In this document: in pieces, positions 57,769 through 61,086 of the stretch
Position numbering within the stretch: the stretch's first letter is position 1
Layout: every line of letters begins with the position of its first letter
Notes under the pieces: model-generated
Database searches by the model: none
The model's input: the letters and a program-made list of their open reading frames with translations, nothing else
Told to the model about the DNA's origin: nothing
Program-made: the position numbers and the translations under genes
Assembly: GCF_024700885.2 (NCBI RefSeq)
Contig: NZ_CP117016.1
DNA length: 64,000 nucleotides
DNA from: Escherichia coli
GTDB lineage: Bacteria > Pseudomonadota > Gammaproteobacteria > Enterobacterales > Enterobacteriaceae
Reading direction: 5' to 3' (one strand)

Positions 57769-58800
57769 TCATGTACTCTGACGTAATTCTATCTGGTAGT
57801 TGAATTGCACGATACGCGACTCTTCTGATTCATCATGATTATTATTCAATAGCCCAATCAGTAACTTACCCGTCTCTATCCCCATTTTTTTGTAGTCAAT
57901 ACGGATGGATGTCAAGGTTGGGTGTGTTTGATCGCAATTGTCTGAACCATCAAGACAAGCTACAGCGATATTTTCAGGAATTTTTAACAAACGCCGCTGG
58001 CACTCAAACATGATACCCAGCGCAATCTCTTCGTGGCTGCAAATCACAGCATCCAGCTCTGGTTGTCGCAGTAATATCTCGTTTAATGCGTAACGCCCCA
58101 ATTGCAGACTTGCGGCATCCGGCATGGTGATAACAAGATCAGAGTTCTGGTAATGGCTCAACATTGCTTTATGCCAGCCGTTCAGTTGCTGACGTTGCAG
58201 GCGGTTGTCCATATGCGCACCGATAAATCCGATATTCTTATAACCCTGTTCCAGCAGATGTTCGGTCAGTTTATGTGATGCTTCAAAAAATGCTGTTTCG
58301 ATGGTAATTTGAGCCGGACTGAAAGGGGAACCGACAACGTTAATGGTAGGTATATTTGTTTTCTCGAGTATCTGGTGAGTTTTATCAGCCAACTGAGAAC
58401 CAAAAATAACTAACGCCGCCGGGTTGCCTTGAAGAAGCGTCATCAGAATTTCAGCTTCTTTGAGCTGATTATACTCATGACACCCAAGCAGTAGCTGGAA
58501 TTCATTTTTATTAAGCACCTGCTGCAACGACTGCATAAAGCGGGAGCTGGCTTTATCTGTCAGGGAAGGAACCAGTACGGCGACTGTATCACTGTGACCA
58601 GATGCAAGGGCGCCAGCAGTTCTGTTGGGAATATAACCCAACTCTTCTACGGCCTGTTCTATCTTTTCCCTCAGCTTGTCAGATACCTGTTCCGGTGTTC
58701 TCAGCGCACGGGAAACGGTCATGGTTCCGACACCTGCAAAGTTAGCGACCTCCTGCAGCGTCACCCGTCCGGTACCACGGCGCTTACGTGTTTTTTCCAT
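57769..58800 (-). CDS. LacI-family transcriptional regulator
   Basis: 343-aa product with N-terminal HTH (VTLQEVANFAGVGTMTVSRAL) and periplasmic-binding-protein-like domain. Confidence 0.8.
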   Translation of the reverse strand: MEKTRKRRGTGRVTLQEVANFAGVGTMTVSRALRTPEQVSDKLREKIEQAVEELGYIPNRTAGALASGHSDTVAVLVPSLTDKASSRFMQSLQQVLNKNEFQLLLGCHEYNQLKEAEILMTLLQGNPAALVIFGSQLADKTHQILEKTNIPTINVVGSPFSPAQITIETAFFEASHKLTEHLLEQGYKNIGFIGAHMDNRLQRQQLNGWHKAMLSHYQNSDLVITMPDAASLQLGRYALNEILLRQPELDAVICSHEEIALGIMFECQRRLLKIPENIAVACLDGSDNCDQTHPTLTSIRIDYKKMGIETGKLLIGLLNNNHDESEESRIVQFNYQIELRQST

Positions 58801-59070
58801 TTCGACTCCATGGATAATTACAACCAGCTGTTTTCATTACTTTTATTTCACCATTACTCTTTCCAGTTTTTGCCCACGGTAGCAAATATCCTGTTGCATT
58901 GTATATGCAGGAACCGAATATAGCCAAAGCATGGCGGCAGAGAAATGATAGCGCTATCACAAAGATTGATAGCGTTATCAGATAGCGCTATCAAATGCGA
59001 CAATCATCACATTAATTAATGCGTAAAATATCTACTCTCCTGTTAATTATCATCGGGAGTTATCAGTAGC

Positions 59071-59514
59071 ATGTTAAAAAATCTATTAAATACAGAGGTC
59101 GTTCAGGTCGTGGAACAGGCCAAAGACTGGCGGGAAGCCGTGGCGATTTCATGCCGGCCGTTGATTGAAAACGGTTCTATCGAACCGCGTTATGTTGATG
59201 CGATCTATCGCTCGCACGACACTATCGGTCCGTACTATGTGGTTGGCCCTGGTATTGCGATGCCTCATGCGCGCCCGGAAGAGGGAGCTAACAAGCTGTC
59301 ATTAGCACTGACCCTGATCCCTTCAGGTGTGAATTTTGATGCCGATGAAAACGATCCAGTGAAATTACTGATTGTGCTGGCTGCAACCGACAGTACCAGC
59401 CACATTGAAGCGATTTCTCAACTCGCCAAGTTATTCGATAACGAAAAAGACATACAGGCCATTTTGATGGCCAAAACGACGCAGGACATTTTGTCTGTTA
59501 TTGCGCGCTATTAA
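59071..59514 (+). CDS. PTS EIIA component (ascorbate/mannitol-type IIA fold)
   Basis: 147-aa product with conserved His region (GIAMPHARPEEG). Confidence 0.75.
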   Translation: MLKNLLNTEVVQVVEQAKDWREAVAISCRPLIENGSIEPRYVDAIYRSHDTIGPYYVVGPGIAMPHARPEEGANKLSLALTLIPSGVNFDADENDPVKLLIVLAATDSTSHIEAISQLAKLFDNEKDIQAILMAKTTQDILSVIARY

Positions 59515-59529
59515 TCCAGAGGAACATTT

Positions 59530-59817
59530 ATGAAAATTACAGTGGTTTGCGGTAACGGCTTAGGCACCAGCCTGATGATGGAAATGAGCATTAAAAGCAT
59601 TTTGAAGGATTTGTCCGTCAGCGCTGATGTTGATCACGTCGACCTGGGCTCCGCGAAAGGGACGTCGAGTGATATCTATGTCGGCACCAAAGACATTGCC
59701 GAGCAGTTAGTCGCGCAGTCTGTCGCAGGCAAAATCGTCGCACTGGAAAATATGATTGATAAGAAAGCCATGAGAGAACGTTTATCCGTGGTATTAAACG
59801 AATTAGGCGCACTGTAA
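59530..59817 (+). CDS. PTS EIIB component (ascorbate-family)
   Basis: 95-aa product with active-site Cys in VVCGNGLGTS. Confidence 0.75.
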   Translation: MKITVVCGNGLGTSLMMEMSIKSILKDLSVSADVDHVDLGSAKGTSSDIYVGTKDIAEQLVAQSVAGKIVALENMIDKKAMRERLSVVLNELGAL

Positions 59818-59829
59818 GCTGGGGGCGAT

Positions 59830-61086
59830 ATGGATTTCTTTCGTTTTTTGATGAGCGATGTACTTTCCGAACCCGCAGTGCTGGTCGGTTTAATCGCCCT
59901 GATTGGCCTGATTGCACAGAAAAAACCGGTAACCGAATGCATTAAAGGTACCGTCAAGACCATTATGGGGTTTGTGATTTTAGGCGCAGGGGCGGGTTTA
60001 GTTGTGTCGTCACTGGGTGACTTCGCAAACATTTTCCAGCATGCCTTTGGTATTCAGGGTGTAGTGCCGAACAATGAAGCCATTGTTTCCGTAGCGCAGA
60101 AAAGCTTCGGGAAAGAAATGGCGATGATTATGTTCTTTGCGATGGTTATCAACATTATGATTGCCCGTTTCACACCGTGGAAATTTATCTTCCTGACCGG
60201 TCATCACACGTTGTTTATGTCGATGATGGTAGCGGTAATTCTGGCAACAGCAGGCATGACCGGCATTACGCTTATAGCCGTTGGCTCTTTGGTTGTTGGC
60301 GTGGCAATGGTCTTTTTCCCGGCTATTGCGCATCCGTACATGAAGAAAGTGACCGGTTCTGATGACGTTGCCATCGGCCACTTCTCAACATTATCTTATG
60401 TATTGGCCGGTTTCATCGGCAGCAAGTTTGGTAATAAAGAGCACTCGACTGAAGACATGAATGTGCCGAAAAGTCTGCTGTTCTTGCGCGACACGCCGGT
60501 TGCTATCTCTTTTACCATGAGCATAATTTTCCTGGTGACGTGCCTGTTTGCGGGTGCAGATGCGGTGAAAGAGCTTAGCGGTGGTAAAAACTGGTTCATG
60601 TTCTCTATCATGCAATCCATTACCTTCGCAGCTGGCGTGTACATCATTCTGCAGGGTGTGCGCATGGTGATTGCGGAGATTGTCCCGGCATTCAAAGGTA
60701 TTTCAGACAAGCTGGTTCCGAATGCCAGACCTGCTCTCGATTGCCCGGTCGTCTTCCCTTACGCACCTAACGCTGTACTGGTTGGTTTCCTGAGTAGCTT
60801 TGCTGCAGGTTTAATCGGTATGTTCACGTTGTATCTGCTGAACATGATCGTGATTATTCCTGGTGTGGTGCCGCACTTCTTCGTAGGTGCAGCTGCAGGG
60901 GTATTCGGTAATGCAACGGGTGGACGTCGTGGTGCGATTTTGGGTGCCTTCGCTCAAGGCTTGCTTATTACCTTCCTGCCAGTATTCTTATTGCCGGTGC
61001 TGGGTGATATTGGTTTTGCTAACACCACCTTCAGTGATGCTGACTTTGGCGCACTGGGTATTTTGTTAGGGATTATCGTTCGCTAA
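59830..61086 (+). CDS. PTS EIIC permease (ascorbate family, UlaA/SgaT-like)
   Basis: 418-aa polytopic membrane protein. Confidence 0.75.
   Translation: MDFFRFLMSDVLSEPAVLVGLIALIGLIAQKKPVTECIKGTVKTIMGFVILGAGAGLVVSSLGDFANIFQHAFGIQGVVPNNEAIVSVAQKSFGKEMAMIMFFAMVINIMIARFTPWKFIFLTGHHTLFMSMMVAVILATAGMTGITLIAVGSLVVGVAMVFFPAIAHPYMKKVTGSDDVAIGHFSTLSYVLAGFIGSKFGNKEHSTEDMNVPKSLLFLRDTPVAISFTMSIIFLVTCLFAGADAVKELSGGKNWFMFSIMQSITFAAGVYIILQGVRMVIAEIVPAFKGISDKLVPNARPALDCPVVFPYAPNAVLVGFLSSFAAGLIGMFTLYLLNMIVIIPGVVPHFFVGAAAGVFGNATGGRRGAILGAFAQGLLITFLPVFLLPVLGDIGFANTTFSDADFGALGILLGIIVR

Follow-up and report, generated by a model that had tools for sequence, protein, structure and literature searches.

The vpe locus of Escherichia coli, a four-gene phosphotransferase module found without dedicated catabolic genes in about 19 genera

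Where are the enzymes that should accompany a carbohydrate transporter with none beside it? The question is raised by a locus on a genomic island of Escherichia coli (assembly GCF_024700885.2, contig NZ_CP117016.1), which was analyzed within a stretch of 64,000 nucleotides, here called the window. The locus encodes a full three-component enzyme II of the phosphotransferase system (PTS). It belongs to the ascorbate fold family and is divergent from a gene for a LacI-type regulator. An initial annotation of the window had described it as marooned between insertion sequence (IS) remnants, with its catabolic enzymes lost or lying further downstream. We identify it as the published vpe locus. The joint best explanation, to which we give a probability of about 0.8, is that vpe is a self-contained, horizontally mobile four-gene module that would work by the mechanism proposed below.

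The four-gene module and its conservation

All four genes were confirmed in the open reading frame (ORF) list of the window (Table 1). Their Pfam matches agree with a complete ascorbate-family (UlaA/SgaT fold) IIA/IIB/IIC set divergent from a LacI-type regulator, as the initial annotation had it. The gaps are 15 bp between IIA and IIB and 12 bp between IIB and IIC. Because they are this short, the three genes are read as one operon. IIA has His66 within MPHARPEEG, which aligns with MPHGRPEEG of UlaC, and IIB has Cys7 within VCGNG, which aligns with VCGNG of UlaB. The phosphorylated residues of UlaC and UlaB are His68 and Cys9. A UlaA/SgaT-fold IIC with a separate IIA (His) and IIB (Cys) places the system in the PTS L-ascorbate family (4.A.7 in the Transporter Classification [TC]). 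The regulator contains a LacI helix-turn-helix domain (PF00356; E value, 2.8e-19) and a periplasmic-binding-protein-like effector domain (Peripla_BP_3, PF13377; E value, 2.2e-25; also PF00532) and is a member of the LacI/GalR family. The G+C content of the module is 46.7%, compared with 50.3% in the core part of the window. An Rfam scan of 56.8 to 62.1 kb gave no RNA-element matches.

The locus is securely the published vpe locus of extraintestinal pathogenic E. coli (ExPEC). As a genome-scan result, it is an ordinary accessory locus that has already been described. Its four ORFs, a regulator and an enzyme II of the L-ascorbate PTS family, adjoin the deoK operon on a tRNA-associated island. 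The passage on vpe in PMC6455142 gives four ORFs, then one ORF, then a deoK operon of four ORFs. The same order was found in the window, CFT073, and O104:H4, where the single ORF is a transposase remnant. In passages of PMC5382810 and PMC6455142, vpe and deoK are neighbors. The former paper puts both on one region of NCTC 86 and uses for comparison O104:H4 2009EL-2050, in which it also names vpe next to deoK. The module in the window is 99.8% identical to that of O104:H4 2009EL-2071, a sister of the comparator strain, and 98.8% identical to the CFT073 and Nissle copies. With DNA identities of 98.8 to 100% to the CFT073, Nissle, and O104:H4 copies, it has no substantive difference from vpe of ExPEC. 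The primary vpe study is said to be that of Martinez-Jehanne et al. from 2012 (Infect Immun 80:2655). In its passage on this protein, PMC6048161 lists VpeC as TC 4.A.7.1.2, a close UlaA relative lacking the 11th transmembrane helix (TM11). The window IIC also lacks TM11. It has 418 amino acids (aa), compared with 465 in UlaA, and the alignment ends near UlaA residue 403. In uropathogenic and sepsis E. coli, vpe has been reported as a fitness and virulence factor.

At least 80% of the module is carried by 935 of 5426 complete E. coli genomes. About 414 further genomes hold fragments only, in the sampled ones mostly the last ~876 to 878 bp of vpeC. EC958 of sequence type 131 (ST131) is of this kind (NZ_CP138232.1; 7003-7878 of the locus stretch). 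Deletion has removed its regulator, IIA, and IIB genes together with the 5' part of IIC. Described as a urovirulence factor, vpe is inactive in the sampled ST131 genomes; several ST131 genomes carry the full module.

A protein homolog search with the IIC gave almost exclusively near-identical E. coli sequences. Orthologs were surveyed by scanning one genome per species. The survey returned 80 loci; ORFs were called in all of them, and the proteins were clustered. Orthologous loci occur in about 19 genera of Enterobacterales and Vibrionales (Buttiauxella, Yersinia, Enterobacter, Klebsiella, Cedecea, Citrobacter, Brenneria, Edaphovirga, Providencia, Proteus, Edwardsiella, Photorhabdus, Xenorhabdus, Fukatsuia, Serratia, Vibrio, Photobacterium, Grimontia, and Aeromonas), and their IICs are 83 to 99% identical to the window protein. 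Only four clusters are common across the genera, namely, IIC (79 loci), IIA (78), IIB (73), and the regulator (71; 16 genera). The regulator adjoins IIA in 71 of the 79 orthologous loci. Providencia, Edwardsiella, and Buttiauxella members of the same 90% clusters have the order regulator-IIA-IIB-IIC in three unrelated chromosomal contexts. The flanks vary by genus, and the four-gene unit stands in at least 10 different IS-free chromosomal settings. No dedicated enzyme gene is linked to the module in any genus (79 loci, about 19 genera). DNA similarity to the modules of other genera is confined to 57757-61093, within 12 bp of the outer stop codons. The closest DNA match outside E. coli is from a Buttiauxella species (87.8%). 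Because only these four genes are common to the genera and homology stops at the module ends, regulator-IIA-IIB-IIC is the whole of a conserved, transferable unit.

The initial annotation had instead suspected a stranded remnant, in which IS activity deleted or separated the catabolic genes and left the transporter orphaned in the island. It was right that IS remnants abut both ends, an IS110 pseudogene on the left and an IS66 TnpA fragment on the right. IS-associated decay also occurs here, as the roughly 414 genomes with partial loci, EC958 included, attest. Such a history would not account for the same enzyme-less unit in about 19 genera and in IS-free settings. Nor does it fit homology that ends so close to the outer stop codons, or four ORFs that are all intact and conserved. 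The comparison of neighborhoods in other genomes, which had been proposed as a check, thus argues against enzyme loss. The remnant explanation is largely refuted, and we consider it extremely unlikely. The enzymes do not lie further downstream either, where the genes are those of the independent deoK operon. The IS remnants reflect the history of the E. coli island, not lost enzymes, and are incidental to the function of the module. The question shifts from where the enzymes went to which sugar needs no special enzymes.

After the four module genes, the most widespread neighbor clusters encode an ABC ATPase and a HAD hydrolase. The hydrolase gene lies beside the regulator in five genera. It was rejected as a partner because its position and strand vary and its flanks differ by genus. 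By gene size and order (400-aa and ~715-aa genes in Yersinia and Brenneria), we tentatively take these flanks to be the yfbT-ackA-pta core neighborhood; those in Buttiauxella and Enterobacter are presumably the yieH-phoU-pst core neighborhood. We read the hydrolase as local core synteny and not as a module member.

Yersinia pestis NCTC5923 contains an intact-length IIC ORF (around 10001-11257 of the locus stretch). The regulator, IIA, and IIB were not found upstream of it by ORF calling and BLAST. The other Yersinia species sampled all have the full module, and the Y. pestis case may be one of gene decay.

Proposed mechanism and predicted regulation

Phylogenetic footprinting suggests that a VpeR-type LacI repressor would bind two to three TGATAGCGCTATCA palindromes upstream of IIA-IIB-IIC and hold the operon off. 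cAMP-CRP would probably activate the vpeABC promoter from an adjacent class II-type site. On induction, the phosphoryl group would pass from HPr~P to His66 of IIA, then to Cys7 of IIB, and then to a carbohydrate held in the elevator-type UlaA-fold IIC. The carbohydrate would be taken in as a phosphate ester, and either this ester or the sugar itself is the most likely inducer. Because no genus has dedicated catabolic genes, the product would be handled by housekeeping metabolism, and no such genes would be needed. In E. coli, the module travels with the deoK operon in tRNA-associated islands, here the leuX island.

The 270-bp divergent region holds three copies of the palindrome (O1 to O3). 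It is of the central-CG type and lies near the promoter that it may regulate, as LacI/GalR operators do. Two to three copies stand at fixed spacing before IIA in all 71 regulator-bearing loci. None was found in the seven regulator-less loci analyzed (five from Xenorhabdus and one each from Fukatsuia and Serratia microhaemolytica). Because the palindrome co-occurs with the regulator across genera and is absent where the regulator is absent, there is strong comparative evidence that it would be the operator of this regulator. A copy at O2 is present in Enterobacteriaceae, Yersinia, Brenneria, and most Vibrionaceae. It is absent from the sampled Providencia, Proteus, and Edwardsiella loci, from Photorhabdus, and from 2 of 11 Vibrio loci. 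No further copies with two or fewer mismatches were found in the 64-kb window. A wider regulon was sought in 1.6 Mb of loci, which held two other copies (in Edwardsiella and in an Aeromonas locus without usable ORF calls).

The regulator-less Xenorhabdus, Fukatsuia, and S. microhaemolytica loci keep IIA-IIB-IIC without the TGATAGCGCTATCA operator. This suggests constitutive or otherwise controlled expression in insect-associated lineages that lack both the regulator and the operator.

The CRP-like site sits inside a block, AAATGnGA-N6/7-TCACATTAAT, that is kept in the representatives of Buttiauxella, Yersinia, Klebsiella, Citrobacter, and Brenneria. In Vibrionaceae and Photorhabdus, the TGTGA half-site is conserved. 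With TACTCT as the -10 hexamer, the center of the CRP site would fall near position -41.5.

The PDB relatives of the regulator include 3d8u, 3h5o ("GntR"), CcpA, LacI, and PurR. 3d8u is ~94% identical (567 bits) to the effector domain of the Vibrio harveyi ortholog of the vpe regulator (gene at 7925-8953 of its locus, minus strand). We recognized it as the effector domain from an ortholog of that regulator in Vibrio. Its deposited name, "PurR transcriptional regulator," is probably a family-level label. The structure could serve in ligand screening.

The transporter and its candidate substrates

The AlphaFold (AF2) model of VpeC has a mean pLDDT of 92.3 and a pTM of 0.90. In Foldseek, it matches UlaA (4rp8/4rp9) with a TM-score of 0.90 and a root mean square deviation of 2.2 Å over 412 columns at 30% identity. 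After UlaA, the closest match by fold is GatC, the galactitol permease. The phmmer E value to 4rp8 is 2.5e-50. Identities to the E. coli Ula proteins are 30% for IIC (UlaA), 38% for IIA (UlaC), and 27% for IIB (UlaB). The vitamin C contacts of UlaA given in the structural passage of PMC6048161 are T86, Y87, H135, I136, Q139, H194, Q195, D314, I358, F362, and M410. VpeC keeps H135, H194, D314, and F362 (UlaA numbering) and has the conservative change I358V. The other six of the 11 are replaced, with T86N, Y87E, I136H, Q139F, and Q195F invariant in 80 orthologs and M410 at a variable position. The UlaA-type set of contact residues is not conserved in VpeC. The mechanistic residues of UlaA (G58, G286, R288, H135, H194, and D314) are kept. 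Because identity to UlaA is 30% and six of the 11 contacts are replaced, the substrate is probably not L-ascorbate. VpeC would use the UlaA transport mechanism, probably with a different ligand.

A second L-ascorbate transporter that feeds the chromosomal ula enzymes would fit the UlaA fold, the four pocket residues that are kept, and the NCBIfam match to NF006919 ("PTS ascorbate transporter subunit IIC"; 628 bits, cut-off 380). VpeC falls below the cut-offs of the true UlaA-type models, however, and its replaced contacts include two Gln-to-Phe changes and a Tyr-to-Glu change. Vpe and UlaABC (SgaTBA) have the same three-component architecture, IIC fold, IIA/IIB phosphorelay motifs, and G58/G286 pivots. 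They differ in gene order (A-B-C in Vpe and C-B-A in Ula) and in the regulator (LacI type in Vpe and the DeoR-type UlaR in Ula). Ula also has TM11 and attached lactonase, decarboxylase, and epimerase genes (UlaG/DEF). With the K-12 ula locus as the comparison, neither ulaG/ulaDEF nor UlaR was found beside the module, whether in the window or at 79 orthologous loci. Given these differences, we regard an ascorbate transporter as very unlikely. The RefSeq name for VpeC, "PTS ascorbate transporter subunit IIC" (gene "ulaA" in some genomes), stems from the NF006919 match. The annotation is probably over-specific.

The initial annotation had called the substrate unknown and had looked to a characterized PTS of known substrate as the relative that could overturn its reading. 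Such a relative was found in part. The vpe locus has been characterized genetically, and no substrate was found in the literature citing the primary vpe study. Literature searches on VpeA/B/C/R, 4.A.7.1.2, and the operator sequence gave nothing beyond papers citing that study, and a search for a sedoheptulose PTS gave nothing relevant. Four further points were not found in the vpe-citing literature: how the module is spread beyond E. coli, its operator and CRP-like motifs, the comparison of its IIC pocket with that of UlaA, and the sister clade linked to transaldolase that is described below.

A search that was exhaustive over cluster representatives retrieved sister clusters at 38 to 53% identity to the IIC. 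At ten aligned UlaA-contact columns, the pocket signature is NEHHFHFDVF in Vpe and TYHIQHQDIF in UlaA. Several sister clusters have a signature identical to that of Vpe at 45 to 52% overall identity. One sister locus encodes a PRD regulator/IIA fusion, a GmhA-like isomerase, IIB, IIC, a bona fide transketolase, and a second GmhA-like isomerase. Another encodes a PRD regulator, IIB, IIC, and a small transaldolase. A third is a stand-alone PTS set. A stand-alone IIA-IIB-IIC with the exact Vpe pocket (52% identity; 3228-5566 of two locus stretches) is divergent from pdxS/pdxT, which encode pyridoxal phosphate synthase, an enzyme that uses pentose phosphate. This adjacency may be coincidence.

A metagenome scan seeded with the sister clade gave 80 loci. 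NEHHFHFDVF is identical in 70 of 77 metagenome IICs, and six others differ by F-to-Y changes only. In 47 of the 77 loci, the gene for a small transaldolase shares the strand of IIC and lies no more than 2.5 kb from it. The fraction is 34/47 for loci with enough flanking DNA and 19/30 for groups collapsed at 90% identity. The TIGR02134 scores of the transaldolase are 366 to 403 bits (cut-off 282). None of the 80 gammaproteobacterial loci has a linked small transaldolase, and transketolase and GmhA-like genes are likewise unlinked there.

Operons that combine a Vpe-pocket PTS with this small "Staphylococcus-type" transaldolase (TIGR02134) are common in gut and fermentation metagenomes and are uncharacterized. 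Examples are found at loci L172 (1909-2625) and L095 (9385-10101). Some have two transaldolase copies or a PfkB kinase instead. These Gram-positive-type ascorbate-family operons have the ten-column pocket and the IIA/IIB/IIC components in common with Vpe. They differ from it in overall identity (45 to 52%), in their PRD/IIA-fusion or DeoR regulators, and in having transaldolase, or transketolase, GmhA-like isomerases, or PfkB kinase, in the operon. A recurrent 261-aa neighbor in the metagenome loci was set aside as most likely an antisense ORF-calling artifact over the transaldolase gene.

Transaldolase, transketolase, and GmhA have sedoheptulose-7-phosphate in common; fructose-6-phosphate and erythrose-4-phosphate would be alternatives. 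It is possible, though doubtful, that the Vpe product enters the non-oxidative pentose-phosphate pathway and that housekeeping TalAB, TktAB, and GmhA suffice in Gram-negative hosts. If so, the enzyme-less module would be explained, because these enzymes are housekeeping in Enterobacterales and Vibrionales. Our best guess at the sugar, made with low confidence, is one whose phosphate enters this pathway, such as a heptulose giving sedoheptulose-7-phosphate. More speculatively, the Vpe-type IICs (NEHHFHFD(V/I)F) might make up a widespread PTS subfamily whose sugar phosphate is a direct substrate of transaldolase or transketolase, most economically a heptulose or heptose. We consider this broader proposal rather improbable. 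If it were true, Vpe could also be connected with the reported phenotypes in capsule and serum resistance, by supplying precursors of the heptose or pentose-phosphate kind. The operator, the 3d8u structure, and the transaldolase-linked sister clade are handles for finding the ligand.

The kinship of the regulator suggests another kind of substrate. Its best NCBIfam match is NF052440, P. aeruginosa GntR (279 bits, cut-off 400), followed by NF047913, IdnR (208, cut-off 500), and NF011563, E. coli GntR (175, cut-off 433). With all three scores under the cut-offs, it is not assigned as a GntR equivalog. P. aeruginosa GntR binds AC-N-AAG-N-TAGCGCT, and its effectors are gluconate and 6-phosphogluconate (PMC5902321). 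Rhodobacter sphaeroides CceR binds TGTTAGCGCTAACA, and its effector is 6-phosphogluconate (PMC4323418). The palindromic operators of this GntR/IdnR/CceR branch have a TAGCGCT core in common with the vpe operator, and their arms are TGTTAG or ATGTTA where vpe has TGATAG. LacI-family operators, the symmetric lac operator among them, commonly have an AGCGCT core. The GntR system regulates GntP/GntK, whereas the predicted targets of the vpe regulator are PTS genes. Kinship and shared core together are a weak pointer to sugar acids.

A sugar acid or lactone of the gluconate type would yield 6-phosphogluconate for Gnd/Edd, and the regulator would sense gluconate or 6-phosphogluconate. This agrees with the family matches, with 3h5o among the PDB relatives, and with the TAGCGCT core in the P. 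aeruginosa GntR and CceR operators. A central metabolite as the product would also account for the missing enzymes. Against it stand the scores below the family cut-offs and the wide occurrence of the AGCGCT core. With Glu83 and three aromatic residues gained, the IIC pocket is unusual for one that binds an anion, and the sister operons with the same pocket carry transaldolase or transketolase and not gluconate-pathway enzymes. We judge a gluconate-type substrate unlikely.

Vpe might also be mainly a sensory or regulatory branch of the PTS, with its phosphorylation state modulating surface polysaccharide and virulence and not carbon supply. According to passages of PMC5382810, PMC5023641, and PMC6455142 that cite the primary study, vpe mutants had much less capsule-like material and were attenuated in sepsis, pyelonephritis, and gut colonization models. 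The lack of linked catabolic genes in any genus would fit this role too. The locus nevertheless has the full kit of an inducible catabolic transporter. Its repressor is of the substrate type and has predicted operators, a CRP-like site is present, and the IIC is intact, with its pocket conserved. The sister-clade systems sit in catabolic operons. The capsule phenotypes could equally follow from altered sugar-phosphate supply. A mainly sensory function is quite unlikely in our view.

We prefer a vpe module that takes up a sugar for housekeeping metabolism. Some points weigh against this account and against the pentose-phosphate proposal within it. The identification with vpe is based on papers citing the primary study and on gene order. 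Transport, repression, and CRP dependence are all three predicted from sequence. A consensus promoter scan called no promoter at the proposed -10 hexamer of vpeABC. The nearest named relatives of the regulator are sensors of gluconate and 6-phosphogluconate (PMC5902321), which points elsewhere. The pocket signature is carried over ~50% identity and presumes that the UlaA-contact columns line the Vpe pocket. Linkage to transaldolase would also fit fructose-6-phosphate-, erythrose-4-phosphate-, or FSA-type chemistry. The glutamate gained in the pocket argues weakly against an anionic substrate and proves nothing.

Flanking genes and the leuX island

Table 1. Features of the vpe module and its flanks (positions in the window)
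Feature	Position	Strand	Basis or remark
ISEc45 (IS110 family), intact	55697-56830	-	Left-flank IS region
IS110-family transposase pseudogene, outside the module	57117-57641 (about)	-	Left flank; RefSeq annotation, identical DNA in NZ_CP019280 and NZ_CP042903
vpeR-type LacI-family repressor gene, 343 aa	57769-58800	-	Pfam LacI HTH and Peripla_BP_1/3
Candidate sigma-70 promoter of the regulator gene, TTGGCT-18-TACAAT	58898-58927	-	Promoter scan, 9/12 consensus matches only
Predicted operator O1, perfect 14-bp palindrome TGATAGCGCTATCA	58946-58959		Read from sequence; phylogenetic footprint; kept in every regulator-bearing locus
Predicted operator O2, TGATAGCGTTATCA, 1 mismatch	58967-58980		Read from sequence; cross-genus alignment
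Predicted operator O3, AGATAGCGCTATCA, 1 mismatch, abuts CRP-like site	58980-58993		Kept in all regulator-bearing loci
CRP-like site TGCGAcaatcaTCACA	58996-59011		1 mismatch to textbook consensus TGTGA-N6-TCACA; putative class II activator site
Candidate -10 hexamer TACTCT of the vpeABC promoter	59033-59038	+	Conserved as TAC(T/C/G)CT
vpeA, PTS enzyme IIA, 147 aa, phosphorylatable His66	59071-59514	+	Pfam PTS_EIIA_2, E value 2.9e-36
vpeB, PTS enzyme IIB, 95 aa, Cys7	59530-59817	+	Pfam PTS_IIB, E value 1e-12
vpeC, PTS enzyme IIC, 418 aa, UlaA fold without TM11	59830-61086	+	Pfam EIIC-GAT PF03611, E value 4e-150
Terminator-like hairpin with T-run, 3' of vpeC	61128-61146	+	Terminator scan; outside the block shared with other genera
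IS66 TnpA remnant, 63 aa, between vpeC and the deoK operon	61333-61524	-	48% identity to TnpA at 53298-53702, E value 5e-14
DUF4432/aldose-1-epimerase-family (mutarotase-like) gene, deoK operon end	62009-63022	-	Pfam DUF4432
FucP-like permease gene, deoK operon, cut by the window end	63034-64000	-	fucP-like match, 176 bits

Nested IS wreckage spans 51751-57641 on the left of the module. It contains an IS100 istA with an internal stop and a truncated istB, as well as IS66-family tnpA/tnpB with a truncated ISEc22-like transposase. On the right, the four full-length E. coli loci that were inspected all have the IS66 TnpA remnant at this same place, and it is also present beside the truncated EC958 locus.

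From 62009 rightward, the genes belong to the end of the deoK deoxyribose operon, a separate unit. Genomes with identical DNA have a ribokinase-family gene after the FucP-like permease gene, and then the gene for a DeoR regulator, which is divergent. This operon was rejected as the source of the missing enzymes. It lies on the opposite strand, comes with a DeoR regulator and a permease of its own, and is unlinked to the module outside E. coli.

The leuX tRNA-Leu gene is at 35419-35503 of this chromosomal window, and the genomic island begins beyond it. The leuX-proximal end of the island (35700-41900) contains recombinase/integrase-type and helix-turn-helix genes and an integrase pseudogene (RefSeq annotation, identical DNA in NZ_CP042903). 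These genes are remnants of the element that delivered the island.

A sugar-acid-type cluster lies at 44114-51169 of the same island. It encodes an IclR regulator (minus strand), a DHDPS-family lyase, a UxaA-family dehydratase, a PdxA-family dehydrogenase, an MFS transporter, and an amidohydrolase; its substrate is not evident. The statement in the initial annotation that no catabolic genes accompany the PTS in the window holds for dedicated genes beside the module. It does not hold for the window as a whole, which also contains this cluster and the end of the deoK operon. The cluster was likewise rejected as the missing enzymes, since it comes with a separate IclR regulator and MFS transporter and shows no co-conservation with the module. 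In ST131 EC958, the cluster directly abuts the truncated vpeC.

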